Below are positions 43,241 to 60,317 of a DNA stretch of 64,000 nucleotides, piece after piece. The DNA is from Planctomycetota bacterium. GTDB taxonomy: Bacteria > Planctomycetota > Brocadiia > SM23-32 > JAKLEA01. Every line of letters begins with the position of its first letter. The stretch's first letter is position 1. The notes beneath the pieces were generated by a model that worked only from the letters and a program-made list of their open reading frames with translations, searched no databases and was not told where the DNA came from. The stretch spans positions 325,214 through 389,213 of the forward strand of contig JAKLEA010000002.1 of NCBI GenBank assembly GCA_022711755.1, given 5' to 3'. The translations under genes were made by a program, and so were the position numbers.

Positions 43241-44623
43241 TCAACCCTCGTCCGATTCGTCGTCTTCGTCCCTGGCAACCCCGTAGTCCCGCAGGCGGCG
43301 TCGCAGTGTGCGGATGGAAATGCCCAGCGCTTCCGCGGTCTTTTCTCGCCTGCCCCCGAATCCCTGAAGCGTTCGCAAAATGTAGGCTTTTTCCAGCTCA
43401 TCAAGCGTGGGCTTGGATTTCAGCATTTCCTCGACGCTGCTTTCGGAGGACTGTAGGCCTGAGAGGTCCCTGGGGGCTATCGCTTTTCCCTTGCAAAGGA
43501 GCGCGGCGCGGTCAATGACGTGCAGCAGTTCCCGGACGTTTCCGGGCCAGGGATGCTCCTCAAGCGCGCGCATCGCCTCCGGCTCAATGTCCGCGATTGA
43601 CTTGTTGTATCTTGCCGCCGATTCGCGCAGGAAATGAAGGGCCAGCAACCGCGTGTCGCCCTTTCTATCCCGGAGGGGGGGTATGGAGACAGTCAGCGTA
43701 TTGAGCCTGAAGTACAGGTCCCTGCGGAAACGGTCTTCGCGGATGGCCTGCATGAGGTCGCGGTTGGTCGCCGCAATGATCCTGGCTTCGGTATGTCTCA
43801 ATTGCGCGCTGCCGACCCTTCGGAAGTCGCCCGTTTCCAGAACGCGCAGGAGCTTGCCCTGGATGAGAGGGGACATGTCCCCGATCTCGTCAAGCATGAG
43901 GCTGCCGCCGCTTGCCGCTTCCAGCAGGCCGCCCCGGTCGTCCATGGCGCCGGTGAACGCGCCCTTTTCGTAGCCGAAGAGTTCGCTCTCGAAGAGGCTT
44001 TCCTGCATGGCCGTGCAGTTGATCGGCAGAAAGGGGCCGGCGGCGGCGCGGCTGCGCGCGTGGATGAGGCGGGCCAGCAGCTCCTTGCCCGTTCCCGTCT
44101 CCCCGAGAAGCAGGACGGGCGAGTCGGACGCCGCGACGCTCTCCGCCAGCTCAATTGTTTCACGCATCGCCGGGTCCTGCGTGACGATCTCCGGCGCGCC
44201 CAGACTGCCGGAGGACGCGGCGCGAAGGGCCGTGTTCTCATCGGCCAGGGAGGCCAGTTTCGCCGCCCTGAGCGCGAGCATGAGCAGCTTCTCGGTGTCG
44301 AAGGGCTTTTCCAGGAAATCGAAGGCCCCGTGCCGCATTGCGGCGACGGCGTTGGAGATCGTCGCGTGCGCCGTCAGGATGATGAATTCTGTATTCTTGT
44401 GCTTGTCGCGGGTGGTTCGCAGGAATTCCATGCCGTTCATGCCCGGCATGGACAGGTCAAGCACGACGACGTCGAACCGGCGCTTCTCCATCCGCTCCGC
44501 GGCATGGTCTGCGGACGACGCCTCTGCCACCCTTGCGCCGCCGTCCTCCAGCGTCCGCCGCACAATCTCGCGAATCGCCTCGTCATCATCAACCACCAGA
44601 ACGTTTGCCGTGGGTCGCCCCAT
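43241..44623 (-). CDS. Sigma54-dependent response regulator (NtrC family: receiver, AAA+ sigma54 activator, Fis-type HTH)
   Basis: Receiver ANVLVVDDDEAIREI. Walker A GETGTGKE. GAFTGA motif ESELFGYEKGAFTGA. C-terminal HTH. RBS GGGAGGA before ATG 44623. Confidence 0.85.
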   Translation of the reverse strand: MGRPTANVLVVDDDEAIREIVRRTLEDGGARVAEASSADHAAERMEKRRFDVVVLDLSMPGMNGMEFLRTTRDKHKNTEFIILTAHATISNAVAAMRHGAFDFLEKPFDTEKLLMLALRAAKLASLADENTALRAASSGSLGAPEIVTQDPAMRETIELAESVAASDSPVLLLGETGTGKELLARLIHARSRAAAGPFLPINCTAMQESLFESELFGYEKGAFTGAMDDRGGLLEAASGGSLMLDEIGDMSPLIQGKLLRVLETGDFRRVGSAQLRHTEARIIAATNRDLMQAIREDRFRRDLYFRLNTLTVSIPPLRDRKGDTRLLALHFLRESAARYNKSIADIEPEAMRALEEHPWPGNVRELLHVIDRAALLCKGKAIAPRDLSGLQSSESSVEEMLKSKPTLDELEKAYILRTLQGFGGRREKTAEALGISIRTLRRRLRDYGVARDEDDESDEG

Positions 44624-44678
44624 GATGCTGTCCTCCCGGCCATGCGTAACTGATGGGCGCAACCGCGCGCCCCCCTGT

Positions 44679-45770
44679 TTAGTCGCTTTCGCTCTTTGAT
44701 CCCGTTTCCGCTGCCGGCAGTTCGACTGAGAACTCCATCGTTTGCCCTGCGCAACGGAGCGCGACGCTTCCTCCGGATTCCGTCAGGATTAGTCGCAACG
44801 ACTCAAGGGATTCCGTGAATCCGGCCCCGGTATCGCAAGCTCGACCGTCTTTGACGCCGGCCTTGAAAACCGCGCATGCTCCTGACTCCGAGCGTCTGAG
44901 GGAAATCGTAATCTCGCCAACAACTTCCGGAGGAACGGTTTTCTCGCACGCATCCAGCGCGCGAAGAAAGGCGTGGAGAAGGAGATGTTCATGGCCATGA
45001 ACCGCCGCGGATTCTTCCCCGTTTTCCAGGCGAAGCTCGAATCGTTTTCTTCTCAGGATGTAGCTTCTGAGCCTTATCGCCTTTTCAATGATGACTCGAA
45101 GATCGAACGTTAACGCTTCGGGCGGATTTGCGGGAGCCAGGGACCGCATGGCGGAGCAAAGTTCAACGGCCTTGTCGGTCTGCTCCTCAACGCGCGCCAG
45201 ATCGCGCCGGGCGTTGTCATCCGTAATGCGGCGACGCAGCAGGCCGGCGAAACCTTTCACACCCGTCAGGTGATTGCGCATTTCGTGCGCCACGCCGGGG
45301 AGAACCTCGGCTGCCATCATCCCGCATGACGCGGCGGCATCCTCCTGCGCGGGCGCGTCCGCAAGAATCAGAATATGATCTCCGACCGGAAGGAGTAGGA
45401 GAGCGTCCATGCCGGATGAGCGATGCGTGTTACAAAGATTTATATCGGGGGCGGGTGCGTCATCGCGGCGGAAGATTACGGGGTCGTTCGCAGTGATCGC
45501 TGTAATGGCTTTTTCGATCCCTGGGATTATTTCCCCGATTGCCGCCGTCTCATCCCCCGGCTTTATTGCGAAGGCGCTCAACGCGGAGCGGCTGGCCGCC
45601 AGAATGCCCCCGGAGCGATCCACAAGCAACGCGGGGCGTCGCATGGCTTGGACTGCCCGCTTCGCGTCATCTTCGCCTTCACGCAGGAAATGGATCATGG
45701 TTCTGTATGCCGCCCCAGGAATCGAGAAACGATGAAACTCAGGCGAGGGCGTCTTTAAAAAAAGCTTCAT
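44679..45770 (-). CDS. Sensor histidine kinase (NtrB-like partner of the sigma54 activator)
   Basis: H-box GVAHEMRNHLTGVKGFAGLL. C-terminal ATPase domain. Immediately upstream of the NtrC-like gene. Start MKLFLK assumed. Confidence 0.7.
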   Translation of the reverse strand: MKLFLKTPSPEFHRFSIPGAAYRTMIHFLREGEDDAKRAVQAMRRPALLVDRSGGILAASRSALSAFAIKPGDETAAIGEIIPGIEKAITAITANDPVIFRRDDAPAPDINLCNTHRSSGMDALLLLPVGDHILILADAPAQEDAAASCGMMAAEVLPGVAHEMRNHLTGVKGFAGLLRRRITDDNARRDLARVEEQTDKAVELCSAMRSLAPANPPEALTFDLRVIIEKAIRLRSYILRRKRFELRLENGEESAAVHGHEHLLLHAFLRALDACEKTVPPEVVGEITISLRRSESGACAVFKAGVKDGRACDTGAGFTESLESLRLILTESGGSVALRCAGQTMEFSVELPAAETGSKSESD

Positions 45771-45851: not shown

Positions 45852-48836
45852 TTATCCGGACGACTTTGAGGCGACCGGCTCATCGGCCTCCTCATGCGCC
45901 ACGCGCAGCCTGGTATCGCTTGCCCCGGCCTCGCAACCGCGCCCGACGTTGTCCTCTCTTATCTGCGCGCGGGTTTCGCATACGCTGCAGCTTATCCAGT
46001 CGTAGCCTCGTTCGATCCTGTATTCCAACTGCTGGGCGCTGAAAGTCGCGCCGCATTCAGCGCAGTTGAGCGGGCGATAGAACTCCAGCTTGTCAACGCA
46101 GGAGCGATGCTTCAGGTGTCTGTAGATGAAGCGTTCAAGCTCCAGGCGCGCCGCGCGGTCAATCTTGAGGTCGAAGTTAAGCTTCAGTTCCGCCGAGTCC
46201 TCTTCAAGGCGGGTCAGGTGAATCCTGAAAGGCGCCTCCTTTTCGTCGTGAAAGCACGCCTCGTTGCTCCAGACCTCGCCCAGGGAAAGACCTTTCTGCC
46301 GGCTGAGTCGCGCAATCAGACGGGCGTAGACGCTTGTCACTGCTCCTCCGAACCTGATAACCAGGGACGATTTCGGTTCCTGCGGCTTGTCGGGAAGCTC
46401 CGCGCCGAACCTTGAAGGGACTATCAGCAGCGGCCCCATATCCGAAGGCTCGCGGATCGCAATTCCGTGCAGGAGAAGTTCTTCCACCGTGCCGACAAGC
46501 ATCAGGCGCTCCTGATCAAGGTTGGCTATGCGTTTGTTTTCAGGAATGCCGAATTCTCCCGTCCGGGCGGTCTTTTCTTCGATTAAGGCAAGTCCGTCAG
46601 GCTCTCCAGACGCCGCTTCAACGATCATGCCGGCATAGTCATAGAACATTGCCGGGCGGGTCAGGAGCAGATCGCCGTAAGCGAATCTGCGGATGATGCC
46701 GCGTGTTTCCGCCAGTTCGATGCAGAACTCAAAGAGGGTCTTCAGGCTTTCAGGCCGCTCCCGCCAGAGACTCCGCGCCTTCTCGACGGCAAGCTCCGTG
46801 TCCGAGGGCTTGTCCTCGACGCGCCTGGCGCCGCCGCGAAGCATTGTCGCGCCGAGGAGGGAGGAGCCTGCGGCCTGTTCCTTCGCCCGGCATACCCAGA
46901 TCGGCGGCAGGGCCGCATCCAGCGGCGTCAGGTGGTAAGCCTCGGTTTTCTGGCGCTCAGTCGGTTCCTCACGCTGAGTCATTTCGCCCTTCAACCGGTC
47001 AGTGAAGGCGATCAATTTCCCGCGCAAACGCTCTCCGAACACGCCCGCCGATGAAGGTTCGGCTGTTCCCTGCTTATCCTCGGCGGCGAGACGGTCCATG
47101 AAGTTTGTGATGAACTTCTTCCGGGTATTGATCACGCGCCCGTCGTCGCGCCATTCGCGGACGTAGTCTGCGATCATCTGAACAAGGTGGGGGCTGCTTA
47201 CCGAGGGGATTTCGTCCCAGTCAATAGCCGTGCGAACGGCGTCAGCAAGGTCGCTGATCTTGTCGCCGGTTCTGGCGCTGCATTCGATGACCGGTCCGAT
47301 GCCGAGTTCCCTGCGCAGCTTGTCCGTGATCCTGCTGCTCACTTTTGAAGGGCCGAGGTCGGATTTGTTCGCGGCGAGGATTATCTTCAAGGAGGAAATG
47401 TCGCGCCCGCAGGCCTTGCATGCAGACTCCAGCATGCGATACCAGCGGCGTACGCCGGCCATCCGGTTGGTTTCCCGGCGCCCGTCGTAGACAATGATCG
47501 CCGCTGACGCTCCGGTCATCTGAAGGCTTCCGGCTGCGCGATTCACCGGGTTGTCATGAATGTCCCAGAGCAGTGTTTCGCGCCAGGCCTGCTGTCCGGC
47601 CTGGGTTTCGAGATTCACCCTCTCCATGAGCCTGATGTCGGCGAGGCCATCGCCGCGGGGCGGCTGTGCCTGACTGCCGCAAAGCGCATTGACCAGGGCG
47701 GTCTTGCCGCTTCCTGAATCGCCTAGGACCAACGCCTTGGCGTTGGCGTAATGGATGTCGCTCAGATGCGGAGGGATAAGCCATTCATCATCCAGTTTCC
47801 ATATTCTGACGCATAGGTTCTGCTCGCCAAGCGTGGCAAGGGCGGGCAGCCTCGGGTGAAACTCCAGTCCGGGGGGACAGAAACGCCCGACGCTCTCCTC
47901 CAGGGCTGCGACCGCCTCCCACGTGTCCGCGCGCCAGATGCGTATCGAACCGTCATTGGACTTTGACGCCATCATTCGCCCGTCGGATGAGAAGCTCAGG
48001 CTTGTGACAGCGCCGGAATGGGCCTTGAAAATCATTTTACGAACAATGCAGGGATTGGAGTGTTCGGCATGCGCGCCTGCAGTGGATGGTTGGATTTGAC
48101 CTGTCGTGGTGTCATTGCCGGATTCGGATGACGCCGAACGGGTGGAATCGGTAATCAGAACGTCCCATCCACCGAGGGTCCATATCTCAATCGCGCCTTC
48201 CTCGGTTCCGACTGCAAAGAAACTCTCATCTGGAGCGATACGCAGGCTCTTAACCTCGCGCTTTTCCTCCTGGAACGTCCAGAGCAGCCTGCTGTTCTCC
48301 GCGTCCCAGAGGCTTATCCTGCTGTCCTCAGAGATTGACGCCAGGCCGCGCCCGGAAGACGTCCAGGAGACAAAAAAGACGCCAGCCTTGCCGCTGGGCA
48401 GCTTGCAGAGACAATCCTCAGATTCCGCGTCCCAGAGCCTGATCGTTCCATCTCCCGACGCTGTTGCAATGACGGAGCCGTCCGGCGACCAACTGACGCA
48501 GTTGACGGGGCCGATGTGTCCCTTCAGGACGCGAACCTCCCGCCCGGTCACGGCATCCCACACGCGGGCCGTTCCATCCCATGAAGCCGACACAATCCTG
48601 CGCGAGTCCGGGGACCAGGCAAGTCCGAACACCACGTCCGTGTGGCCGCTGAGCGTCCTGAGCGCCTGCCCGGCTTTCACGTCCCAGACTCGCAGTGTCC
48701 TGTCGTATGAGGAACTGGCCAGGCAGCATCCGTCCGGGGACCAAGCCACGCGCGCTATATCCGACCTGTGCCCGGTGAACGAATGAAGCAGTTTCAGGCC
48801 TCTTGGCGTTTCCTTGCGGGCCTTCTTTGCGTCCAT
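45852..48836 (-). CDS. WD40-repeat / Ras-like (Roc) GTPase / COR-like / C-terminal zinc-ribbon multidomain protein
   Basis: About 300 aa of WD40 repeats (GHxxxV...WSPDG...WD). G-domain with GDSGSGKT (G1), NKSD (G4), CSAR (G5). About 400-aa COR-like region. C-terminal CAECG...CSVC. Confidence 0.65.
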   Translation of the reverse strand: MDAKKARKETPRGLKLLHSFTGHRSDIARVAWSPDGCCLASSSYDRTLRVWDVKAGQALRTLSGHTDVVFGLAWSPDSRRIVSASWDGTARVWDAVTGREVRVLKGHIGPVNCVSWSPDGSVIATASGDGTIRLWDAESEDCLCKLPSGKAGVFFVSWTSSGRGLASISEDSRISLWDAENSRLLWTFQEEKREVKSLRIAPDESFFAVGTEEGAIEIWTLGGWDVLITDSTRSASSESGNDTTTGQIQPSTAGAHAEHSNPCIVRKMIFKAHSGAVTSLSFSSDGRMMASKSNDGSIRIWRADTWEAVAALEESVGRFCPPGLEFHPRLPALATLGEQNLCVRIWKLDDEWLIPPHLSDIHYANAKALVLGDSGSGKTALVNALCGSQAQPPRGDGLADIRLMERVNLETQAGQQAWRETLLWDIHDNPVNRAAGSLQMTGASAAIIVYDGRRETNRMAGVRRWYRMLESACKACGRDISSLKIILAANKSDLGPSKVSSRITDKLRRELGIGPVIECSARTGDKISDLADAVRTAIDWDEIPSVSSPHLVQMIADYVREWRDDGRVINTRKKFITNFMDRLAAEDKQGTAEPSSAGVFGERLRGKLIAFTDRLKGEMTQREEPTERQKTEAYHLTPLDAALPPIWVCRAKEQAAGSSLLGATMLRGGARRVEDKPSDTELAVEKARSLWRERPESLKTLFEFCIELAETRGIIRRFAYGDLLLTRPAMFYDYAGMIVEAASGEPDGLALIEEKTARTGEFGIPENKRIANLDQERLMLVGTVEELLLHGIAIREPSDMGPLLIVPSRFGAELPDKPQEPKSSLVIRFGGAVTSVYARLIARLSRQKGLSLGEVWSNEACFHDEKEAPFRIHLTRLEEDSAELKLNFDLKIDRAARLELERFIYRHLKHRSCVDKLEFYRPLNCAECGATFSAQQLEYRIERGYDWISCSVCETRAQIREDNVGRGCEAGASDTRLRVAHEEADEPVASKSSG

Positions 48837-48873
48837 CTTTTCTTCCCCCTTTCGGGCGGCTTAGTCATCATGG

Positions 48874-49044
48874 TTATCTGAGAATCATCACCGCCCATTG
48901 AATTGTTGCTGCAAAGGCAAGGTGGCAGATCAGAAGCACAATCGTCAGGAAGACTGCAAATTCAAGCTCAAGCGTCTCCCGGAAGAATGTATTCTTCACC
49001 ATGCCTGCAATTCCCTTTTTCATTGTCCGGATTTTTGTCTTCAT
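48874..49044 (-). CDS. Candidate 56-aa single-TM small protein (not in the ORF track, below 60 aa)
   Basis: MKTKIRTMKKGIAGMVKNTFFRETLELEFAVFLTIVLLICHLAFAATIQWAVMILR. Sits between the pseudokinase-FHA and WD40-Roc genes. Low GC. Weak AAGG RBS. Confidence 0.25.
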   Translation of the reverse strand: MKTKIRTMKKGIAGMVKNTFFRETLELEFAVFLTIVLLICHLAFAATIQWAVMILR

Positions 49045-49056
49045 GATTCTTGCCTT

Positions 49057-50679
49057 TCACTTGACGGCGATGTGTCTTTGCTGATTTCCATGCGCTGCCG
49101 AGGCCGCGCCGGGGTTGTGCGAAATCTCGAATCCAATCTTGCCGACGCCTATTCGCCTGACCGCCTCGACCATCGTCCAGGGGGCCAGGCGCTGTCCGTC
49201 AACCGTAGTGCCGTTCAGGCTTCCGCAGTCCTGCACGAAGATCGTGTCCCCGGCGCGGCGCACCGTGCAATGGCAGGAGCTGGTGCCGGCGTCCTCGATG
49301 ACGATCTGGCACGATCCCCTGTCCCGCCCGATGGTGAATTCCTCGCCGTCTCTTATCGGGGCGGAGAACTTCCCGGAGTCGTTGCGGCGGGCGATCAGCG
49401 TGATCGGGTTGGAGAACGCGGCCCCCTCCTCCCCGCGCGCCGCGGGGGGGATGACGGCGTTCCGGTTGAACCAGACGCGGAACGCGCCGCGCTCCCTGGC
49501 CGGGACCGGCGATATCTCGGCGTCCTCGTAGAGGCAGGCCTGTGTCTCAGGTTCGGTCCTGCTGCAACGCCGGGCCTCCTGCCGCTTCCCGTCCGCCCGT
49601 TTATCCGGAATCTGGTGTTTCGCGGACGACCGCTCCTGCTGCTCCTGTGACTCGCGGCGTTCCTTGTTTGGATCGGCGCGAAGGCCGGCGTAAGCCTTCC
49701 TGAGATCATCCAGAAGCTCGTTATATGTCTGATATCGCGATTCCGGCTCGCGGGCTGTCATGCGGCGGATGATTACGTTGGTCAGCGGCGAAACGTCCGG
49801 CGTGAGCATCCTCACGAGGGGAACCGGCTTGCACAGCCGAGCGGCCAGCACCTCCGCGACGCTGCCGGTGAATGGCGGCGCCCCCGTCAGCATGTGAAAG
49901 GCGGTCATGCCCAGGGAGCAGATGTCGGAGCGCGCGTCAAGCTCCCGGTCTCCGCGCACGCGCTCCGGAGAAAGATAGGCCGGAGTTCCGATCATCGTCA
50001 GGCCTTCGTTGAGGGTCGTCGTGTCCTCTGCCGGATCAGGCTCGGCCTGCAACAGTCCGGTCCTGTGAGCCAGAGCGAAGTCGGTCAATTTAACCGCGTG
50101 CTGCCTTGTGAAAAGTATGTTTGATGGTTTAATGTTGCCGTGGGTGATTCCAGAGATGTCTGCGTCGCCCAGCGCGTCAACTGCCGCTATCAGCACGCTT
50201 AATGCGAGCCTTTCACCCAGACGTCCGCGTTTTGCAATGATTTTCTCCATTGAGATGCCGTCCACCAGCTCCATCGCAACGTAATGACACTTCCCTGCGC
50301 GACCGGCGGAGTGGCAGCGGACGATGCCGCAGTGCTTAAGACTTATCGCTTTTTGAGCGCTGAGCGTGAACCGGCGGGAAAAGGCAGTATCGGCAATCGG
50401 GCATAGGTCTATTGTCTTGACCGCCACGGTCTTTCCATCGTCAATCTGCATCGCCTTGTAGATTTTCGTTCCGGGACCGCTGCCGATTTCAGAAATCAAC
50501 TGGTAACCCGGGATTGCAGGGAGCAGTTTGCGTTCAAGGATGGCTTCAATGTCCGGAGTCATGCGGGCGGCGGCGGCCCGGCTCAGGTCAATCCCCACAT
50601 CAAGGGGGAATTCGTTGAAATGCCCAGTCGAAAACGCCGGCGCGCTTCTTTTTCCAGTCTGAGTCAGTTCGCTCTTCAT
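49057..50679 (-). CDS. eSTK-like pseudokinase with C-terminal FHA domain
   Basis: G-loop GSGPGTKIY, VAVK, catalytic loop THGNIKPSNIL (HRD Asp replaced by Gly-Asn), DFA, SPE. FHA at the C-terminus (TIGRD...SSCHC...NGT). RBS GGGGAGAGA before ATG 50679. Confidence 0.7.
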   Translation of the reverse strand: MKSELTQTGKRSAPAFSTGHFNEFPLDVGIDLSRAAAARMTPDIEAILERKLLPAIPGYQLISEIGSGPGTKIYKAMQIDDGKTVAVKTIDLCPIADTAFSRRFTLSAQKAISLKHCGIVRCHSAGRAGKCHYVAMELVDGISMEKIIAKRGRLGERLALSVLIAAVDALGDADISGITHGNIKPSNILFTRQHAVKLTDFALAHRTGLLQAEPDPAEDTTTLNEGLTMIGTPAYLSPERVRGDRELDARSDICSLGMTAFHMLTGAPPFTGSVAEVLAARLCKPVPLVRMLTPDVSPLTNVIIRRMTAREPESRYQTYNELLDDLRKAYAGLRADPNKERRESQEQQERSSAKHQIPDKRADGKRQEARRCSRTEPETQACLYEDAEISPVPARERGAFRVWFNRNAVIPPAARGEEGAAFSNPITLIARRNDSGKFSAPIRDGEEFTIGRDRGSCQIVIEDAGTSSCHCTVRRAGDTIFVQDCGSLNGTTVDGQRLAPWTMVEAVRRIGVGKIGFEISHNPGAASAAHGNQQRHIAVK

Positions 50680-50740
50680 CACGTTCTCTCCCCAAATTTC
50701 GGCCTGGCTTGCCGCACAAGGCACTCGGTATCATCAGCAA

Positions 50741-50756
50741 ATGCAAAGCTGATGCC
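50741..50756 (-). promoter_or_regulatory. Sigma54-type -24/-12 promoter candidate (cGGCATc-agct-TTGCA)
   Basis: GG/GC spacing canonical. About 45 nt upstream of the pseudokinase-FHA start. Confidence 0.4.
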
Positions 50757-51094
50757 GAAACCGGCTTTCAATAATAAAGACAATATTCTTATATGATGAC
50801 TCTACATAACCTATTTCTAGTCAATGGATTACGACGTCGGAGAAAAATCTTGTCAAGTGGGATGACGGGACAAGATTCAGAATGCAGAATGCGCGCGGAC
50901 ATCCTACCGGTCATTTTGTCCCCCGGCGGGGACTATTCTGCCCGATGCGATGGGGGGGGAAGCGATACCGAACGGTTCGATGGCGGGAGGCTGATTCCGG
51001 ACGGGTAGGAAATGAGCCGGGCCCCGGTCGAGAGGCGAAGCGACGCGGGACCCGGACTCGCGGGGACAACCTTATATTTACGCCTGTCGCGCAG

Positions 51095-52153
51095 TCAGCT
51101 TGTGACGGCGGCTATGCGCGATGCGGAGGACTTGAAGCCTTCAATGCGCCGGGATAACTCCTTCAAGGCGGAGAGCGCCTTCGGATTGCCCGGTTCGCAG
51201 GCCAGGGCGGACTCCAGCGCCTCCATTGCCGCGCAATACCGGCGTTCCATAACCAGTTCGGCGGCCGATTTCAGCAGTTCATCAACGCTTGCGGCGGAGG
51301 TGGCGGCGTCCGCTGCTTCCCGGTCTTGCGACTCGCCGGGTGGAACCGGGGGATTCAGGTATTGTTCAAGTTCCGGAATCCCGCCCGGGGGGGCCGCGGT
51401 GTCGAGCTGCGTGGTTGGCTCACTGAGTTCGGGAAGTCTGGAGTCTGCAGTCGTTTCCTCAATGCCGATTTCTGACTGCGACTCCTCCGGAACATCAACG
51501 CTGAGGTTGATCTTCGCCGGATTTGAGAAGTCCTTGAACTCAACCTCGAAATCTCCGGAGTTCCAGTCAAGCAACTCGACCGCCGCGTCCAGGGGGAGCA
51601 TCCCGTCAAGCTCGGCGTCAATGATCTCTGAGTCGCGCAGGTAAAGCCTGCCGCTTCGATCCTCCCGGCGCAGGCAGATGGCGCAGCTCTGTCCGGAGCG
51701 GCAGATGACCTTGACCAGGCTCGTGGTCGGCAGGTCCTCAAGGCGGCCTCGGAATGCCTCGGAACGCCCGGCCTGAGCCATGGAGCGGTCAATAGTCATC
51801 TTCGCCCGGACGACAAGCTCGCGCGGATCAACCGGCTTGGGGAGATAGTCCGTGCATCCCATTTCCAGACCCTTGAGCCTGTCCTGAAGCGCGGAACGCT
51901 CCGTCAGGAAGAGGAAAGGAATGCCGGCGGTCTCGTCATCAAGCTGAAGCTCTCCGAAGAGCTGAAAGCCGTCCATCTCCGGCATGTTGACATCCGAGAT
52001 GATGAGGTCGGGCTTGACGATTTTCAGCTTTTGCAGCGCGTCTCGCCCGTTGCGCGCCAGTACCGCTCTGAATCCTGAGTTTTCGAAGCTGCGGGACAAC
52101 AGCCGCAGCAGTATCTCGTCGTCGTCAACCAGAAGTATTATTCCCTTTATCAT
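51095..52153 (-). CDS. Response regulator: receiver plus C-terminal domain of unknown function (DUF4388-like?) plus TPR-like tail
   Basis: MIKGIILLVDDDE...DLIISDVNMPEMDG...FLFLTERS receiver. The domain assignment for the C-terminal region is from memory only. AGGAGG RBS. Start overlaps the upstream kinase stop (ATGA). Confidence 0.7.
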   Translation of the reverse strand: MIKGIILLVDDDEILLRLLSRSFENSGFRAVLARNGRDALQKLKIVKPDLIISDVNMPEMDGFQLFGELQLDDETAGIPFLFLTERSALQDRLKGLEMGCTDYLPKPVDPRELVVRAKMTIDRSMAQAGRSEAFRGRLEDLPTTSLVKVICRSGQSCAICLRREDRSGRLYLRDSEIIDAELDGMLPLDAAVELLDWNSGDFEVEFKDFSNPAKINLSVDVPEESQSEIGIEETTADSRLPELSEPTTQLDTAAPPGGIPELEQYLNPPVPPGESQDREAADAATSAASVDELLKSAAELVMERRYCAAMEALESALACEPGNPKALSALKELSRRIEGFKSSASRIAAVTS

Positions 52154-53436
52154 CTCGACGCCTCCTGAAAAGTTGTTGTGGTTTCCTCTTTGAAACAGCG
52201 TTTCCGGATCATGCGCCTGACCGGAAGACCGTCCATCGTCCGGAGTGTGCCCAGGGCGGCCTCGATATCGGTAAGGCATTCGCGCATGTCCGTGAAGCCT
52301 TCCCCCGGATTGGAAGCAGTCATCTTCTTGAGCAGTTCGGCGGTTCGCGGCGTGACGCTGACGCCGAATTCAGAAAGTTTCGGCAGGCCGAGGTGTTCCA
52401 GTTCCCAAAGGACTTTCTTCGGGTCCGGCGCGTAGGGCATTCTGCCTGCCAGCATTGAGAAAAGGAGGATGCCAAGCGCGTGCATGTCGTCCGCAAAGCC
52501 GGGGACATCCAATTCCTTCAGCAGTCGCCGGCTCAGGTATTCCACCCCCGACGCATGGCGCGCCTTCTGCCCCGGAAGAATCCTGCCGGCTGCCTGCAAA
52601 AGGCCGGAGGGCGGGGCTGACCAGTCAATGCTCATGATCCTGCCGGTTACGCCGATCAGGATGTTCTCGGTTTTTATGCCGCCATGCGGCAGGCCGCGCT
52701 TATGCCCTTCCAGAACTCCCAGCGCGACCTGCCTGAGCAACTCCATGGCCGTGCGTTCGGAGAGTTTCCTGCGCCTTCGCAGAAGCACGTCAAGCGTTAT
52801 GCCGTGCTCGTATTCCTCCAGGATCATGACGCAATGCCTTACGCGGGCGAATTGCGTCACCCGCGCCGCGCAGGGATGAGCCATATTCGCATGGACCCTG
52901 TCGGCCTTGTCCAGCGCAAGCTCGACATCCCTCTGATCGGCCAGTCGCCGGACGTCTATCACCTTCAGGCGCCGGGCCACGTTTCCGCCATTGCCGGCGA
53001 CCCTGTAGGACGATCCCAGCGCGCCTTCGCCCAGTTTGTAGTCAACACGGTATTTATGCGTTCCGTCGCCAACCTGCTCCGGATGCTGCTCGATTTTTCC
53101 GGGAGCGCCGGGTGCGTTGGTCATGCTCCCTTCGACAACGTCAGATAGGAAGCGCTGGAAGAACATCGTGCCGTCATCCGGATCAGCGTTGCCGTTTGTC
53201 AGGTTGCCGAACTGCTCGATCGTTGACGCGATCTCCGACCTGCTGACGTAGCCGCGGCGCACCGCGATCGCCACCGGATCGGCGGGGCAGCCCAGGCTGG
53301 TCATGACATCGGCGTCCTTCCTGCATTCGCGGAAATGCTCCGGATCGCAGAGGACCTGGAGGGCCTTCAGTTGCACGGAAGATCGGAATCCGCTGCTTCC
53401 TGACGAACTTCGGATTTTGTTTTTGTCGTCGCTCAT
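52150..53436 (-). CDS. eSTK-like pseudokinase (degenerate catalytic motifs) with N-terminal domain of about 130 aa
   Basis: G-loop GEGALGSSY, RRLKV, catalytic loop PHGGIKTENILI (HRD replaced by HGG), IDW in place of DFG. Start overlaps the stop of the upstream HK (TAATG). Confidence 0.6.
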   Translation of the reverse strand: MSDDKNKIRSSSGSSGFRSSVQLKALQVLCDPEHFRECRKDADVMTSLGCPADPVAIAVRRGYVSRSEIASTIEQFGNLTNGNADPDDGTMFFQRFLSDVVEGSMTNAPGAPGKIEQHPEQVGDGTHKYRVDYKLGEGALGSSYRVAGNGGNVARRLKVIDVRRLADQRDVELALDKADRVHANMAHPCAARVTQFARVRHCVMILEEYEHGITLDVLLRRRRKLSERTAMELLRQVALGVLEGHKRGLPHGGIKTENILIGVTGRIMSIDWSAPPSGLLQAAGRILPGQKARHASGVEYLSRRLLKELDVPGFADDMHALGILLFSMLAGRMPYAPDPKKVLWELEHLGLPKLSEFGVSVTPRTAELLKKMTASNPGEGFTDMRECLTDIEAALGTLRTMDGLPVRRMIRKRCFKEETTTTFQEASR

Positions 53437-56400
53437 TATTTGTCTCCCGATGATGCGTAGATGGGAGGTCTGGATGCGTCAGCCCCAATGACGCCGCAGA
53501 CGGCTCCGAGAAGTTTTTCCGCAATCTGATCAACGTCGTCCGCGCCCGACTTGCAGGCGCGCTCCAGGCCGCCGCCGAGACGCCCTATCTCGGCGTAACC
53601 GAAAGTGCCCGCTGTTCCCTTAAGATCGTGCCCGATTTTCTGAAGGGCCGGCCTGTTCCCGGCGGAAAGCGCCCTGCCCAGGTCAACGGCGTCGCGATTC
53701 AAGCGTCTCAGGTATTCCTCTCTGAGTTCTTCGATGCACGCCTGGAAGCTGTCTTCCTCAGGCTTGTCAATTCCTGTCTCCTGTTCCTGCGTTTTTTGTG
53801 ATTCCGCGAGGGCTTTCCCGCGTTTTATGACAAGATTGCTTATGCAATCCCGCAAGGCCGCCCGATCCAGCGGCTTGGCGAGGTATGCGTCGCATCCGGC
53901 TGCCAGGCATTCCTCCTGATCGCCCTTCATCGCGGCGGCCGTCAGCGCGACTATGGGAAGGTTCCTGAACCTGGCGTCCTCCCTGATGTTGCGGGCGGTC
54001 TGGTATCCGTCCATGACCGGCATGCGCATGTCAAGAAGCACAAGGTCGTAATCGCCCTGGTCAAGGGCGGAGATGCACAGCGCGCCGTTGTCAACAATGT
54101 CGGCCCTGTGTCCCTCCTTCTCCAGCGCCTTGCGAATGAGCTTCTGGTTGGTCGGGTTATCCTCTGCGACGAGCACGCGCAGGCCGTTTCCGGATGCCGG
54201 AGGACAGGCTGCCGCGTCCTTGCCGGCGGCAGCGGGGCGGGCATCTCGCGCAGACTCGCCCGGGATCACCCATCGGCTGCAGATTTCCGCGATCCTGTCG
54301 CGGGGCAGGCCGTTGGCAGCCGCGTAGTCCATCAATTCGGCGGTCAGGCGCTTTGACTCCTCCGGGGTCATTTCCTCCTCTGCATTGACCACGACGCGGA
54401 CGGAGTCCAGCAGATTGCGTTCGGAAAGGTTCTGAATTAGCTTCAGTCCTTCGCTGTGAACGTTGCGCACGGACATCAGCACCGCGCCGGGGCGATAGCC
54501 GCGCTCAATCTCGGTCATCAGGTCGCTTGCCGACGCGAAGTTCCGGTGACCGTTGTGTTTGTCCTCTTCGCGCTCCGGTTCGTTTGAGAGCACGGCCACC
54601 TCGGCAACGGGATTTTCCTTCAGGACCTCAAGCACCCTCCGGCGCAGGACGCGGATGCCGCCGGCCTTTGGGATGCACTCCACCGCGCCGAGCAGTCCGG
54701 CCCTGCGCTGGTCGGCCACCACGGAGCAGACGATGACGGGTATGTCGCTCAGTTCGGGATCGGCCTTCAGGTCGCGCAGGATGTCCCACCCGTTGCGCCC
54801 CGGCAGCAGTATGTCCAGTATGATTGCGCACGGCCTGAGCCTGCGCGCTTCCGCTATCGCCGCGCCGCCGTCGGGGCAGCCGACAACCGAGACGCCGCTT
54901 CGCGCAAAGGCCGAGCGGTAGAGCTTCAGGCAGGTTGCGTCGTCCTCGACCGCCAGGACGACGCCGCGCTCGCCGGCGGGCGCCCTAGCGGATTCCGTGT
55001 TGTGCCGCGCCATGCCCGGGGCATGATCTTCATCCGGCTCTTCCCGCGCCTGAAGCGAGACTCCGGCAGGCAGGCGGAAAGAGAATACGCTTCCTTCTCC
55101 CAGACGGCTTTCGACGCTGATGCAGCCCCCCATGGCCTCGATGGTCCTGCGGCAGATGGCAAGCCCCAGGCCGGTTCCGCCGAATCTGCTGGCGATGGAG
55201 GCGTCGGCCTGGTTGAACGGGTCGAAGATCTTCTCCATTGCTTCCGGGGCTATGCCGATGCCCTGATCCCGCACGGCGAACCTGATAGAATCCCGTCCAG
55301 CATCGTTGGTCTCGACCGAGCAGCTCATGACGATCCTGCCCCGCCGGGTGAACTTGACGGCGTTACCCATCAGGTTGGTAAGAACCTGGCGGATTCGAAG
55401 CGGATCGCCGGCAAGCTCACGCGGAACGTCCGGGGATATCTCGCAGACAAGTTCAAGCCCCTTCTCGGAAGCCGTCGGGACGAAGGTTTTCATCGTTTCC
55501 TGCGCAAGTGTCCACGGATCATAGGGCTTCCTCTCGAAAACCATCGCGCCGGACTCGACCTTGCTCAGGTCAAGTATGTCGTTGATGAGCGCCAGGAGCG
55601 TTTTGCCGCTTGAGCGTATAGTCTCCACGGCGTCTCGCTGGTCGTCGGTCAGGATGTCGTCCATGAGCATGTCGGCAAAGCCCATGATGCCGTTAAGAGG
55701 CGTTCTTATCTCATGGCTCATGTTGGCCAGGAAACGGCTTTTGGTTGAGTTTGCGGCCTCGGCCGCCGCCTTGGCCCTGAGGAGTTCAAGCCTGGCCTTC
55801 GCCTGTTCCGTGACGTCCTCGACCATCTCAATGGCGGCGATGATGTTTCCGGCGGTGTCGGTTATTGGGCTGGAGACGATCTTGTAGTGCCTGATCTCGT
55901 CGCCGTTCGGGGTGTTTGTCGTGGCCTCGTGGAGTTTCCCGTCGGCCAGCGTCAGCGCAGTCGGGCAGTAGGAGCATCGTTCATCGCGGGCCGGACTGTT
56001 GAATGCGCGGTAGCAGGTCGGGCATTCCCGGGCGTCAACGTTCGGGAACCACTTCTGCATCTGCTTGTTCAGCGAGAGTATCCGCATGTCGGCGCTGATG
56101 ACGGCCACCCCGACCCCGATATTGTCAACGACGTTTCGATATTTCTGTTCCGACTCGCGAATGGCTTCTTCAGCCTGCTTTTGAGCGCTTATGTCCCGTA
56201 CGGTAGCCTGCAGAAAGGTCTGGCCGTTCAATTCCACCCTCGTCAGCAGCACGGTGGCGGGGAAAACGCGCCCGTCAAGGCGCATATGCGCCCATTCGAA
56301 GAAATGCGCCCCGTCCCGCATCGCCGTTCCGATCATCTCCGCCGCCTTTTCGGAGGAGGCTCGTCCGTCCGGTTGGAATTCCGGCGACAATTCCCACGGG

Positions 56401-57758
56401 CCTTTCGAGACGAATTCCTCTTCGTCTGCGGCGCCGAAAAGCTCCACGCAAGACGGATTTCCTGAAGCGAATCTCCATGACGGCGGGGCGAGGGTCATGA
56501 TCGCGTCGCGCGAGGACTCAAATAGCGTCTTGTAGAGTTTTCTGCTTTCATTCAACGCATCTTCAGCTTGTTTTCGATTTCGGATGTCAACAAAGCTTTC
56601 AATCAGGCACTCCCGATCCCCGAGATTCGTCTTTACCACGCTCTTGATTACGGGAATCTCCCGACTCTGCGCGTCGAGGATTACTCGTTCGGAGTTCTCA
56701 ACCGTCCTGCCGAGATCGGTGATCGGGCACTTGCCGCATTCGGCGGGGCATATGTGCTTATGGCATATCTGGCCGACTATTTCGCTCTTTGGCGCTCCTA
56801 TCATCCCGATTGCGACGGGATTGACCTCCAGTACCACATGTGTCTCGGCGTCAACAATTGCAATGCCGGTAGGCAACGATTCCAGGATGCCGTTGAGCCT
56901 TTGGTTGTATTCAATAAGTTTGGTTTCCGCTTCGCGGCGTCGGGTGATGTCTTCACCGGAGGCCAGCACCGCTTTGATCCGGCCGTCCGCATCGCGGACG
57001 GCGGTATTGTGCCAGAATATGAGTTTCTCCTCTCCTTGCCGCGTAAGAATGACGTTCTCGCATTCCTCCACCCATCCCGAATCGCCATTCAGGATGCCTT
57101 TGAAGATTTCTCTGACTTCCTCCCTCACGCGCATGGGAAGACAGGTCTCAAACCAGTCTTTGCCGATCAGTTCGGCGGCGGCATAACCCATAAGCTCGTG
57201 TCCCTTCCGGTTGATCATTGCGATCTTCCCGTCAAGGTCCAGGGCCAGGAGTATCACCCCGGCAACATCAAGGTATCCTGCGGAGACGTCGTGTTGTTCC
57301 TTGAGCGCCTGTTCCGCCGTTATCGTCTCCGTAATGTCCTCGATGACGTGAAGCCAAAGGTTGCCGCATGGGGCGTTCTTGTTCGTTTTTGAGCACTTGA
57401 CGCGGAAGAATCTGCCGGGGAGCAACTCCTGACAGGCGACAGAAAAGTCCTCCCCGTTCGCCATGCTGCGGCACGCGTCGCAAAGTTCCGGCGGCCTGTC
57501 CGAGCAGTGGACGACCTCGTAGCATTTACGTCCGATCACGTCCTGCGGTTTACGAGATATCATTCCGCAAAAGCCCTGGTTGCAATCCAGGATGTTCTGC
57601 CCCGGATCCATGAGGAACGCCGGGAAGGGAAGCCCCTCCAACGTCAGCCTGCCCGCCGCCTTGACGCTTTGATTTTCCACTTTCTCGCCTCTTGGGTTGT
57701 CTGTTTTATCAGGGCGCGCCCCGCGCGCGCCCTGTTGAGCGTTCGACTTGATATGCAA
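53436..57758 (-). CDS. Cytoplasmic hybrid histidine kinase (Cys-motif PAS, about 6 PAS domains, HisKA, HATPase, REC, REC, Hpt)
   Basis: HisKA LANMSHEIRTPLNGIMGF. HATPase GTGLGLAICRRTIEAMGGCISVES. Two receivers (VVLAVEDD...; RVLVAEDNPTNQ...LLDMRMPVMDG). Hpt HDLKGTAGTFGYAEIG. True start probably downstream of 57758 (GTG 57680 or ATG 57611), because a sigma54 element lies at 57763-57777. Confidence 0.85.
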   Translation of the reverse strand: MHIKSNAQQGARGARPDKTDNPRGEKVENQSVKAAGRLTLEGLPFPAFLMDPGQNILDCNQGFCGMISRKPQDVIGRKCYEVVHCSDRPPELCDACRSMANGEDFSVACQELLPGRFFRVKCSKTNKNAPCGNLWLHVIEDITETITAEQALKEQHDVSAGYLDVAGVILLALDLDGKIAMINRKGHELMGYAAAELIGKDWFETCLPMRVREEVREIFKGILNGDSGWVEECENVILTRQGEEKLIFWHNTAVRDADGRIKAVLASGEDITRRREAETKLIEYNQRLNGILESLPTGIAIVDAETHVVLEVNPVAIGMIGAPKSEIVGQICHKHICPAECGKCPITDLGRTVENSERVILDAQSREIPVIKSVVKTNLGDRECLIESFVDIRNRKQAEDALNESRKLYKTLFESSRDAIMTLAPPSWRFASGNPSCVELFGAADEEEFVSKGPWELSPEFQPDGRASSEKAAEMIGTAMRDGAHFFEWAHMRLDGRVFPATVLLTRVELNGQTFLQATVRDISAQKQAEEAIRESEQKYRNVVDNIGVGVAVISADMRILSLNKQMQKWFPNVDARECPTCYRAFNSPARDERCSYCPTALTLADGKLHEATTNTPNGDEIRHYKIVSSPITDTAGNIIAAIEMVEDVTEQAKARLELLRAKAAAEAANSTKSRFLANMSHEIRTPLNGIMGFADMLMDDILTDDQRDAVETIRSSGKTLLALINDILDLSKVESGAMVFERKPYDPWTLAQETMKTFVPTASEKGLELVCEISPDVPRELAGDPLRIRQVLTNLMGNAVKFTRRGRIVMSCSVETNDAGRDSIRFAVRDQGIGIAPEAMEKIFDPFNQADASIASRFGGTGLGLAICRRTIEAMGGCISVESRLGEGSVFSFRLPAGVSLQAREEPDEDHAPGMARHNTESARAPAGERGVVLAVEDDATCLKLYRSAFARSGVSVVGCPDGGAAIAEARRLRPCAIILDILLPGRNGWDILRDLKADPELSDIPVIVCSVVADQRRAGLLGAVECIPKAGGIRVLRRRVLEVLKENPVAEVAVLSNEPEREEDKHNGHRNFASASDLMTEIERGYRPGAVLMSVRNVHSEGLKLIQNLSERNLLDSVRVVVNAEEEMTPEESKRLTAELMDYAAANGLPRDRIAEICSRWVIPGESARDARPAAAGKDAAACPPASGNGLRVLVAEDNPTNQKLIRKALEKEGHRADIVDNGALCISALDQGDYDLVLLDMRMPVMDGYQTARNIREDARFRNLPIVALTAAAMKGDQEECLAAGCDAYLAKPLDRAALRDCISNLVIKRGKALAESQKTQEQETGIDKPEEDSFQACIEELREEYLRRLNRDAVDLGRALSAGNRPALQKIGHDLKGTAGTFGYAEIGRLGGGLERACKSGADDVDQIAEKLLGAVCGVIGADASRPPIYASSGDK
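57707..57731 (-). promoter_or_regulatory. Perfect 10-bp GC-rich inverted repeat with 5-nt loop (CAGGGCGCGC-cccgc-GCGCGCCCTG) in the predicted 5' leader of the Hpt-HK operon
   Basis: Seen directly in the sequence. Lies +20 to +45 relative to the TSS predicted from the sigma54 element. Confidence 0.5.
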
Positions 57759-57762
57759 ATAC

Positions 57763-57777
57763 GCAAGAGACGTGCCA
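57763..57777 (-). promoter_or_regulatory. Sigma54-type -24/-12 promoter (TGGCACG-tctc-TTGCG)
   Basis: Matches the TGGCACG-N4-TTGCW consensus on the minus strand. Sits upstream of the HK-pseudokinase-REC operon. Confidence 0.55.
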
Positions 57778-58084: not shown

Positions 58085-59974
58085 TCAGGCCTCGGTTATG
58101 AGCCTGAAACTGGTCTTGCCGATCTTCAATTCTGTTGTCATCCAGCCAACCTCGCCGGCTTCGAGCTTCCTGCCGTCCACGCTGGTGCCGTTGCGGCTGT
58201 TGCAGTCCTGAACGACGACGTTGTTGCCGCTGCGCATGACCTTACAGTGGGAAATGCTGACCTGCGGGTCTTCCAGGACGACGTGGCTGAAGTCGGCGGA
58301 GCGTCCGAACGTGAGTTCATCCCCGTCGTTGAGTATGATGCCCACCTTGTCGCGCCCGTCCGTGACCAGAACCATCGGCGATGAGAAGGGGCCTGACCTT
58401 TCGGTCATGACCTTCGAAATCGAGTCGGAATCCCTCACTGGGAACACGTGCGCTCCGTCGCCTTTGACGGCAATGTCCGAACCTTCCGCATCGGGCTTGC
58501 GAGGATTGATGACCGTCGGAACCTCCAAAAAGCGGCAGATATCATCGGGGGTCTTCTTGACGGTCGGGCTGGAATCCGGGGATTTGCTTTCATTGCCGCC
58601 CTCGTATTCCTTCAACAGCCCAAGCACGCGGGAGATGCTTTCTTCGCCGGGGCCGCAGGAAACGCTGCCTTCGGATTTCGCGGAGCCTTGAATGGCTTCC
58701 GCAAGTTCGGGGGCGTCGTCAGCCTCGGCCACCTGCGCGCCGACGGCCTCCGGCTCGAATTCCTTCAGGAACGGCAGGACTTTGGAGAGACTTTCGTCGG
58801 TTCCGAGGCTTCCGTGCGACGTCTCGCGGGCGGCCGGCGCGGATTTCGGGGCGGAGGGGAGCGATGAAATCGCAGGCTGATTCGGGCCTTTCGCCTGTTC
58901 CGCAGAGTCCTTGCGCGCTGGCTGATAACTGCCGGTCTTGGCCAGCCGCGCGGACAGGGCGTGAAATTCCCGCAGCAGTTCCTTCGGACTCTGGTAGCGC
59001 GCCTCCGGAGCCTTGGCGCTCATCTTCATGATGACCCGCTCCGTCATGGGCGAAATCTCAGGAACAAAGTTCCGCAGGGGGGGCAGGGGGTAGAGCAGAT
59101 GCGCTGACATGACTTCGATGGCCTTGCCCTTGAACGGGATTTTGCCAGTCAGTACCTTGAACAGCGAGATGCCCAGCGAGTAAATGTCCGAGCGCACGTC
59201 CACCTCCTGCTCCCCCCTTACCTGCTCCGGAGACATGAAAGCAGGGGTGCCGACGCGCATGTTGGCCTGGGTTATCGCCGTGCTCTGCTGCGCATTCCCG
59301 TCCTTGCCCCATACGAACTGCTTTGCCAGGCCCAGGTCAACCAGCTTTACGTGGCCGTCGAAGGTGATCAGGATGTTGTGGGGCTTTATGTCCCGATGGG
59401 CGATGCCGTGACTCCAGAGATGGTCCATCGCATGGAGCGTCTCGATCATGATGTCCACTGCCGCCGCTTCCTGGAGGCGTCCCTGATTCTCGATGAGGTC
59501 GTTGAGGGAGTAGCCGTGGACGAATTCCATAATGGCGTAGAGCATGTCCCCGTCCTGTCCGTATCCGAGGATACGGGCGACGTTCGGGTGATCCAGGCCG
59601 GCCGCCATCCTCGCGGTCTTCAAAAAGCGCCGGGGGGTATTTGGATTCATCTCGACGTCCACGTTCAAGACCTTGATTGCCACCATCGCCCCAGTCTTTG
59701 CGTCTGATGCCTTATAGACCGTGCCCTGCGAACCTTGACCGAGGACTTCAATGATCTTGTAGCCGAGTTTTTCGAGTTTCTCGGGGTTTGACGTCTGGCG
59801 ATATGCCTGGAGGGCCGGATTGTCAGTGCTTTCCAGGATGATTGTTCCGGACTCTTCATCAATGCCGTTGAAGATGGATGGTTTGTCGCCGCCCGCCGGA
59901 GGAGTAGGAGTCTTTCCCGCTCCGGAAATTACCGGCTGATTTGTGATGCGTGCGTTTGCCATGTTGGTCTGCAT
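58085..59974 (-). CDS. Ser/Thr protein kinase with C-terminal FHA domain
   Basis: G-loop GQGSQGTVY, AIKV, catalytic loop HRDIKPHNIL, DLG, SPE. FHA at the C-terminus (TFGRS...SISHC...NGT). RBS AAGGAAG. Confidence 0.85.
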   Translation of the reverse strand: MQTNMANARITNQPVISGAGKTPTPPAGGDKPSIFNGIDEESGTIILESTDNPALQAYRQTSNPEKLEKLGYKIIEVLGQGSQGTVYKASDAKTGAMVAIKVLNVDVEMNPNTPRRFLKTARMAAGLDHPNVARILGYGQDGDMLYAIMEFVHGYSLNDLIENQGRLQEAAAVDIMIETLHAMDHLWSHGIAHRDIKPHNILITFDGHVKLVDLGLAKQFVWGKDGNAQQSTAITQANMRVGTPAFMSPEQVRGEQEVDVRSDIYSLGISLFKVLTGKIPFKGKAIEVMSAHLLYPLPPLRNFVPEISPMTERVIMKMSAKAPEARYQSPKELLREFHALSARLAKTGSYQPARKDSAEQAKGPNQPAISSLPSAPKSAPAARETSHGSLGTDESLSKVLPFLKEFEPEAVGAQVAEADDAPELAEAIQGSAKSEGSVSCGPGEESISRVLGLLKEYEGGNESKSPDSSPTVKKTPDDICRFLEVPTVINPRKPDAEGSDIAVKGDGAHVFPVRDSDSISKVMTERSGPFSSPMVLVTDGRDKVGIILNDGDELTFGRSADFSHVVLEDPQVSISHCKVMRSGNNVVVQDCNSRNGTSVDGRKLEAGEVGWMTTELKIGKTSFRLITEA

Positions 59975-60040: not shown

Positions 60041-60055
60041 GCAACTGCCGTGCCA
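60041..60055 (-). promoter_or_regulatory. Sigma54-type -24/-12 promoter (TGGCACG-gcag-TTGCG)
   Basis: Consensus match about 65 nt upstream of the STK-FHA start. The leader carries four UUCAU repeats (60001-60024). Confidence 0.55.
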
Positions 60056-60317
60056 GTTTGCGCTTTAAGGTATAAACATTCGGTGGAATTGCCGGGATGT
60101 TTATCGCAGACACATCATGCAGGAAAGGGAAGTCTGATGGATGGGCGATGTTTGATAAAAACTGCGCCGTCCGCAGGGCCGCAGGAGGGGGATCTATCGG
60201 TCATTCTGTCCGGTGCGGTAGCGGAATTGGCCGCGTGGTCATGAATCGGCAAGGCGCATTCCGCTTGTCAGCCATTCAGTAGCGAGCCGGTTTGTTCGAC
60301 AGATACCCGACCCGAAG

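Follow-up and report, generated by a model that had tools for sequence, protein, structure and literature searches.

Does a planctomycete carry the parts of a LRRK2-like signalling protein in separate genes? The question is raised by a 64,000-nucleotide (nt) stretch of Planctomycetota DNA (GenBank assembly GCA_022711755.1, contig JAKLEA010000002.1, positions 325,214 to 389,213 of the forward strand), which is called here, at its full length, the window. It encodes Roc994, a protein of 994 amino acids (aa) with WD40 repeats, a Ras-like G domain and a COR-like region, next to genes for kinase-like proteins on the same strand, an arrangement that a first-pass annotation of the DNA described as LRRK2-like logic in pieces. 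As judged from its sequence, Roc994 belongs to a family of the order beta-propeller (WD40), Roc, COR, Zn ribbon and effector, in which it is a divergent member that lacks the effector and has degenerate switches. A bacterial split LRRK2-like circuit is not supported by the comparative data, and the chances are about even that Roc994 is a nucleotide-binding, non-switching Roco scaffold that was recruited into a circuit of sigma-54, two-component and Ser/Thr kinase proteins. The protein and its parts are the following.

45852..48836, minus strand: Roc994, 994-aa WD40-Roc-COR-Zn-ribbon protein without C-terminal effector (open reading frame; Pfam WD40 and Roc)
47787..48794, minus strand: WD40 beta-propeller at the N-terminus, aa ~15-350 (PF00400 at 184.8 bits; also many beta-propeller families)
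47217..47753, minus strand: Roc G domain, aa 362-540
47700-47723, minus strand: G1 motif GDSGSGKT, aa 372-379
47637..47666, minus strand: degenerate switch I, QPPRGDGLAD; the family T-x-S-T, including the G2 Thr, is absent
47550..47567, minus strand: degenerate G3/switch II, WDIHDN, aa 424-429; WD[LMF]AGQ in the family (alignment and motif census)
47358-47369, minus strand: G4 motif NKSD, aa 490-493
47271-47282, minus strand: G5 motif CSAR, aa 519-522
46092..47216, minus strand: COR-like region, aa 541-915, a helical/winged-helix COR-A and an alpha/beta COR-B
45978..46064, minus strand: four-Cys zinc ribbon CAEC...CSVC, aa 925-953 (pairs 925-928 and 950-953)

Roc994 is identical to the public protein P0001, which is named from a Candidatus Brocadiia bacterium metagenome-assembled genome (MAG; class Brocadiia, Planctomycetota). 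A 15-23 kb stretch with its locus is found, with DNA that is 100% identical, in the assemblies of three samples, and because the three locus-carrying contigs are identical, they offer no polymorphism for a test of selection. The frame is unbroken across all 994 codons, the composition is like that of the neighbouring genes, the GC content at third codon positions (GC3) is typical of the genome and the Shine-Dalgarno sequence is good. One other open reading frame of the window, for a REC-PAS-GAF-PAS hybrid histidine kinase (HK; 40202-43186, plus strand), is also exactly 994 aa long; duplication was rejected as the source of the two, which are unrelated and agree in length by coincidence.

The N-terminal WD40 repeats reported in the first-pass annotation are clearly recognized by Pfam, and the central domain, analyzed with the propeller removed, is assigned to Roc (PF08477, 40.3 bits against a cut-off of 27) and to Ras (35.3 bits), in agreement with its earlier reading as a G domain. 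The region that follows had been described as helical and of the size of COR. It is a COR domain, although recognizable only by its fold: the Pfam COR and COR-B models gave no match at E <= 1 to Roc994 or to three of its relatives, and a profile of the family found Rab-like G domains only, among the 60 matches listed from the PDB sequences, while the 13 best Foldseek hits of the COR fragment alone (E 8e-10 to 1e-3) were all to the Chlorobium tepidum Roco protein or to LRRK2. This bacterial protein is genuinely related to the Roc-COR module of LRRK2.

COR-A contains an insertion of ~115 aa (aa 584-699, 46740-47087), which is modelled with low confidence, is disordered and is absent from all relatives. 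Thr, Ser, Glu and Arg are abundant in this insertion, and its TxxD-type motifs, such as HLTPLD, could serve as FHA ligands if phosphorylated. The C-terminal CxxC...CxxC ribbon is also where the first-pass annotation had seen it. Of its four Cys columns, an alignment of 26 sequences shows three as invariant and one as nearly so, and all four are invariant in an alignment of 4 sequences. After the ribbon Roc994 has a tail of 41 aa, followed by the stop codon.

The proteins most similar to Roc994 define a large family. The first search returned three relatives (E 1e-70 to 1e-39, with P0002 at E 1.4e-70) that are homologous over ~500 residues, and a profile search extended them to 26 near-full-length WD40-Roc proteins, with profile scores of 334-705 bits on the relatives. 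An exhaustive profile search of 1.84 billion representatives gave at least 1307 clusters at 50% identity (E <= 1e-30), and a scan that took one genome for each GTDB species gave at least 551 family loci, in Nostoc, Calothrix, Chloroflexota, Acidobacteriota, Actinomycetota, Planctomycetota and others. The presence of WD40 in place of LRR, considered atypical in the first-pass annotation, is indeed so with respect to the LRR-Roc-COR literature, where a 2019 review of Roco proteins gives this architecture for every prokaryotic Roco then known, but WD40 in this place is shared by the large family found here. With more than 1000 clusters, the family adds to the bacterial proteins that can serve as tractable models of the LRRK2 Roc-COR module.

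In nearly all members the propeller is followed by Roc, COR, the Zn ribbon, a conserved linker and an effector. The effector is a TIR domain in 112 of the 151 proteins parsed (74%), a class III cyclase in 19 (13%), an EAD death-like adaptor in 3 and something else in 17. The tail after the Zn ribbon is at least 60 aa long in 148 of these proteins (~98%) and shorter in three, Roc994 among them. Roc994 possesses the homologous Roc-COR-Zn ribbon core behind a WD40 propeller but not the C-terminal effector or adaptor, and it is an outlier also in sequence, with a mean identity to its relatives of 33%, compared with 58% among the relatives themselves. A word search of 5.8 billion proteins and the profile search of 1.84 billion representatives found no orthologue of Roc994 other than itself, the next proteins being ~27-40% identical.

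The family fits the class of AP-GTPase “counter-invader” proteins, described by Kaur, Iyer, Burroughs and Aravind (2021, eLife 10:e70394) as LRR-AP-GTPase-COR-effector proteins. Their supplement contains single examples labelled “BetaPropeller+AP-GTPase+PrimaseZnR+TIR” and “AP-GTPase+ZNR”, and the role in defence is a prediction of the same authors. PADLOC has no model for the Roc-COR core and returned only generic WD40, TIR, PycC and kinase matches; the TIR and cyclase domains of the relatives match its defence-type models ThsB/SAVED-TIR and PycC. Roc994 shares with the counter-invader proteins the succession of a repeat sensor, Roc and COR, then a Zn ribbon. Unlike them, it has no effector, its switches I and II are degenerate while its NKSD motif is canonical, it carries the COR-A insertion, and it is found in an apparent signalling operon rather than as a stand-alone gene.

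The G domain was called complete in the first-pass annotation. This is correct for G1, G4 and G5 and incorrect for the switches, as shown by an alignment of Roc994 with 27 relatives and by a census of motifs in 133 parsed family members, G3 being readable in 111 of them. G3 reads WD[LMF]AGQ in 108 of the 111 and WDIHDN in Roc994 only, where the Gly of DxxG is replaced by Asp and the Gln that follows by Asn (DxxGQ to D-I-H-D-N). In switch I the T-x-S-T of the family, from the nearly invariant columns T39, S41 and T42, has become P-x-G-D, and the alignment of the family profile to Rab places T-x-S-T at the switch I Thr. The opposite is seen at G4, which is [AG]RxD in nearly all readable parsed members, where it may reflect a relaxed or altered nucleotide specificity, and is the canonical NKSD in Roc994 alone.

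The gamma-phosphate sensors of Ras-like switches are two “loaded-spring” residues, the Thr of switch I and the Gly of DxxG. Since G1, G4 and G5 are intact and both sensors are lost, Roc994 is inferred to bind nucleotide without a canonical switch or hydrolysis, a prediction drawn from the motifs. With both residues of the Ras-like switch gone, a “GTPase regulating kinases” is unlikely in its canonical form.

By comparison with Roco proteins of known structure, the LRR-Roc-COR protein of Chlorobium tepidum (PDB codes 3dpu, 3dpt and 6hlu) and Roco2 of Methanosarcina barkeri (PDB code 4wnr), Roc994 has a Ras-like Roc domain with COR immediately C-terminal to it. It differs from these bacterial and archaeal proteins by its WD40 domain instead of the N-terminal LRR, by a COR that escapes Pfam, by the added Zn ribbon, and by G1-G5 motifs that are no longer all intact, the switch residues having been lost.

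What Roc994 might do in this state is suggested by its neighbours, all encoded on the same strand.

43241..44623, minus strand: NtrC-type sigma-54 activator, 460 aa (REC, Sigma54_activat and HTH_8 in Pfam), last gene of the string
44679..45698, minus strand: 339-aa HisKA protein directly downstream of Roc994 (Pfam HisKA only, 34.6 bits)
48874..49044, minus strand: p56, a 56-aa open reading frame, a doubtful gene whose product has a basic N-terminus and a single long hydrophobic segment (translation, GC3)
49057..50679, minus strand: pk555, pseudokinase-FHA protein, a 555-aa open reading frame, 540 aa from M16 (Pkinase 106.9 bits, FHA 50.9 bits)
51095..52153, minus strand: REC-PATAN (DUF4388/PatA_N) response regulator, 352 aa (Response_reg 91.7 bits, DUF4388 39.3 bits)
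52150..53436, minus strand: pk428, 428-aa pseudokinase (Pkinase 66.6 bits; HRD to HGG, DFG to DWS)
53436..57680, minus strand: hybrid HK, 1414 aa, with four PAS, HisKA, HATPase_c, two REC and Hpt domains (Pfam)
58085..59974, minus strand: STK, an apparently active Ser/Thr kinase with a C-terminal FHA domain, 629 aa (Pkinase 182.1 bits, FHA 44.7 bits)

The apparent operon of Roc994 has the order pk555, p56, Roc994, HisKA-only HK and NtrC-type activator, with successive gaps of 12, 37, 153 and 55 nt, the third of which refers to the HK start as called. The pseudokinase with a C-terminal FHA domain reported upstream of Roc994 is supported by Pfam, and the motif alignment bears out the absence of the catalytic Asp from both kinase-like neighbours. 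Both have the Pkinase fold, their HGN (pk555) and HGG (pk428) align to the HRD of PknB, and both keep the beta3 Lys and the catalytic-loop Asn; in pk555, DFG is changed to DFA. The FHA domain of pk555 retains the GR, SxxH and NG residues that bind phospho-Thr. pk555 is a paralogue of the active STK, with the same architecture and identities of 37% in the kinase and 34% in the FHA domain, while the STK itself retains HRD and has DLG. The small p56 exists as an open reading frame and is called by public gene callers; it has no Pfam hit, and its GC3 of 0.54, compared with 0.62-0.79 in its neighbours, makes it doubtful as a gene.

The hybrid HK, pk428 and REC-PATAN genes form the translationally coupled triad that had been proposed, with a TAATG at 53436 (1-nt overlap) and an ATGA at 52150-52153 (4 nt) behind GGAGG. 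The C-terminal domain of the REC protein, unassigned in the first-pass annotation, is DUF4388/PatA_N/PATAN, and it is accompanied by a Pro-rich linker and a TPR-like tail. Downstream of Roc994, the 339-aa HisKA protein has a His box and a PAS-like N-terminus; Pfam finds no HATPase_c in it, and the expected position of the N-box reads ALDACEKT. It may be a further pseudo-enzyme of the cluster, paired with the NtrC-type activator. This protein was considered as a displaced effector of Roc994 and rejected, having its own PAS-like N-terminus and HisKA domain.

The cluster is thus wider than the part first annotated, as it takes in the downstream HK and NtrC-type genes (43241-45698) and, upstream, the STK with its promoter (to ~60211). 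Nearly all genes between 34589 and 60000 are signalling genes, with five histidine kinases, the NtrC-type activator, REC-PATAN, three kinase-fold proteins and Roc994. Elsewhere in the window, four open reading frames on the minus strand fall into no Pfam family at the thresholds used: 28968-30107 (379 aa), 30207-31904 (565 aa), 33031-34206 (391 aa) and 61389-63854 (821 aa).

Candidate promoter and activator elements precede three of the transcription units.

50742..50757, minus strand: weak sigma-54-type -24/-12 element CGGCATCAGCTTTGCA, 63 nt upstream of the pk555 start (2 mismatches, GG/GC kept)
50897..50921, minus strand: palindromic upstream element GGACAAAATGACCGGTAGGATGTCC, ~150 nt upstream of the pk555 -24 element (19 of 25 bases as in the STK element)
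57763..57777, minus strand: sigma-54 core TGGCACGTCTCTTGC, ~80 nt upstream of the hybrid HK start (exact TGGCACG-N4-TTGC)
60041..60055, minus strand: sigma-54 core TGGCACGGCAGTTGC, 66 nt upstream of the STK start codon (exact TGGCACG-N4-TTGC)
60198..60211, minus strand: upstream element GGACAGAATGACCG, ~150 nt upstream of the STK -24 element (matches the pk555-operon element)

The exact TGGCACG-N4-TTGC occurs twice in the window, compared with 0.07 expected, both times in an intergenic position and on the coding strand. The upstream regions of the STK and pk555 have in common the motif GGACA[AG]AATGACCG, which extends to the match of 19 in 25 bases, and those of pk555 and the hybrid HK have in common GTTGTCCCCG[CG]GAG and GGACA-N-TGTCC palindromes. 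The candidate activator sites (50897-50921, 51057-51070, 57934-57953 and 60198-60211, all on the minus strand) are shared pairwise, each at a distance of ~150-300 nt on the upstream side of the -24 element; not a single k-mer of at least 8 nt recurs in all three upstream regions. In combination with the NtrC-type activator that ends the Roc994 string, these motifs suggest that the pk555-Roc994, STK and hybrid-HK units may form one sigma-54 regulon. No rpoN was seen in the window; the NtrC-type bacterial enhancer-binding protein is present. Terminator and sigma-70 scans of 43-60.6 kb were uninformative, with fewer sites than in shuffled sequences and none of them intergenic. A weaker GG/GC element is also found upstream of the HK at 34589 (34578-34593, plus strand).

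In the scaffold reading, Roc994 has kept its sensor and scaffold parts, namely the propeller, the P-loop and guanine-specificity motifs, COR and the Zn ribbon, and has lost the output domain and the two switch residues. The guanine nucleotide would be bound as a static cofactor, without cycling. COR is the dimerisation domain of Roco proteins, and Roc994 might be a dimeric assembly platform of a phospho-signalling circuit, in which the active STK-FHA would phosphorylate partners and the FHA domain of its paralogous pseudokinase would read the phospho-Thr. The output would be sigma-54 transcription via the HK/NtrC pair, probably with feedback on the STK and hybrid-HK units. Roc994 is a natural experiment on what remains after the loss of an output domain and switch residues, left intact inside an operon of pseudo-enzymes; as a scaffold, it would show the re-use of immune-type NTPase sensors for ordinary signalling.

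Several points weigh against a scaffold. We infer, rather than observe, the nucleotide binding of Roc994 and the protein-protein interactions, including who phosphorylates or binds whom, and its membership in the operon is deduced from spacing. The element upstream of the Roc994 operon belongs to a class that is not enriched in the window, with 14 two-mismatch sigma-54 elements found and 17 expected, and the common upstream motifs were found post hoc. The DxxD/N form of G3 might still permit some nucleotide-dependent change. Signalling genes crowd the stretch between 34.5 and 60 kb, and therefore the adjacency of Roc994 to kinase homologues could be incidental. Lastly, the arrangement is known from one lineage only, because neither Roc994 nor the pseudokinase-FHA protein has an orthologue in the collections searched; for the latter, a scan of JGI metagenomes and a protein search gave generic kinases, 26-37% identical and without FHA.

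The main rival is that Roc994 is a conflict-system remnant or decoy that stands among signalling genes by chance. It would be a present or former defence sensor, either a remnant without effector or else a sensor or decoy that relies on an effector supplied from another place in the genome, an explanation that is unlikely on balance. Nearly all parsed relatives have the longer tail, mostly with a TIR or cyclase domain that resembles those of PADLOC defence systems; they are typically NTPase-switch proteins encoded by stand-alone single genes with their own TIR, cyclase or EAD effector, in variable contexts, and the window is very rich in signalling genes regardless of Roc994. Against this reading stand the intact frame, the genome-typical GC3, the good Shine-Dalgarno sequence and the short flanking gaps of 12 and 37 nt. 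Roc994 has no EAD adaptor domain for recruiting an effector in trans, there is no effector remnant between its stop codon and the next gene, and its motif changes are specific, with a canonical NKSD not seen in the rest of the family, which is unlike random decay. If it is a remnant, Roc994 is ordinary.

The scaffold reading can be taken further, to an immune (TIR-type) Roco that was domesticated into housekeeping signalling as a nucleotide-locked WD40/COR scaffold, coupling the pseudokinase-FHA protein and the active STK to the HK/NtrC sigma-54 output. In this full form it is a speculative proposal and probably wrong in at least some part. If true, Roc994 would represent the first case in bacteria of a Roc-COR protein that works with partners of the kinase fold, and the complex would be a natural “pseudo-GTPase plus pseudokinase” signalling assembly.

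The arrangement that gave rise to the question, a split LRRK2-like system, survives less well. Here the Roc-COR module would cycle between GTP and GDP and allosterically control the adjacent kinase-like proteins in trans, with the WD40 domain as an interaction platform. As in LRRK2 and LRRK1 (ARM/ANK-LRR-Roc-COR-kinase-WD40), a Roc-COR module, a kinase fold and a WD40 domain are all encoded at the locus, the Roc-COR fold is shared with LRRK2, and the genes are co-oriented and tightly spaced, as the first-pass annotation had stated. The likeness to LRRK2 that it drew from this is an analogy, not a conserved system. The WD40 domain is N-terminal, and Roc994 contains no kinase domain fused C-terminal to COR; the kinase homologues are separate upstream genes, and with both adjacent ones lacking the catalytic Asp there is no kinase output to regulate. 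The replaced switch I Thr and DxxG Gly/Gln make a canonical GTP switch unlikely as well.

The linkage to kinases is not a property of the family either. Among the 82 loci surveyed with HMM searches (the best 80 of the at least 551 from the genome scan and two looked up directly), a protein kinase is encoded within 10 kb in 7, adjacent in one, an FHA domain in 2 and PATAN in none. The proposal that Roc-COR and kinase genes pair as a conserved, LRRK-like functional unit, for which conserved neighbourhoods had been suggested as a check, is not supported by this survey of the relatives; in two loci viewed in detail the neighbours are unrelated. The idea of LRRK2-like logic in pieces is weakened because the switch is degenerate, the partners are pseudokinases, and the family is self-contained, with its own effectors and without an association with kinases. 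We regard a split LRRK2-like system as quite improbable.

The sole kinase-adjacent relative in the survey is nevertheless in its favour, as kinase and FHA genes directly precede an independent Roc gene. In this locus (L075, 1074-8574 of the Polyangia MAG contig JBBRLA010000346.1), a 1144-aa protein comprises a pseudokinase (HRDLN...NFG), an active kinase and two FHA domains, and the stop of the next gene, which encodes a 400-aa kinase, has a 4-nt overlap with the start of the WD40-Roc-COR-Zn ribbon-TIR gene. The adjacency is noteworthy, but such cases are expected now and then in kinase-rich myxobacteria. In another locus, L064 from Thermoanaerobaculia, a kinase-TPR gene and an FHA-sigma-54 activator lie 3 kb from a Roc-TIR gene; it was judged independent and rejected as a kinase-linked case because two unrelated open reading frames intervene.

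A polarity or motility module like MglA with PATAN, in which Roc994 and REC-PATAN would jointly control a type IV pilus or polarity apparatus, is hardly credible: PATAN (DUF4388) proteins are reported regularly near MglA/MglB homologues and to bind the pilus motor PilB1, and the strand of Roc994 carries the REC-PATAN gene 2.3 kb upstream of it, but Roc994 is of the Roco type and not of the MglA family, no MglB/Roadblock or pilus gene is found in the annotated parts of the window, PATAN is absent from the 82 surveyed loci of relatives, and REC-PATAN belongs to a separate, translationally coupled unit. The locus does resemble the actinobacterial conservon (CvnA-D) and the MglA/PATAN neighbourhoods in that genes for a histidine kinase and response regulators accompany the one for a Ras-superfamily G domain. 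It differs from both by having no Roadblock/MglB partner and by its G protein, which is a 994-aa protein of the Roco type instead of a small one of the MglA type.

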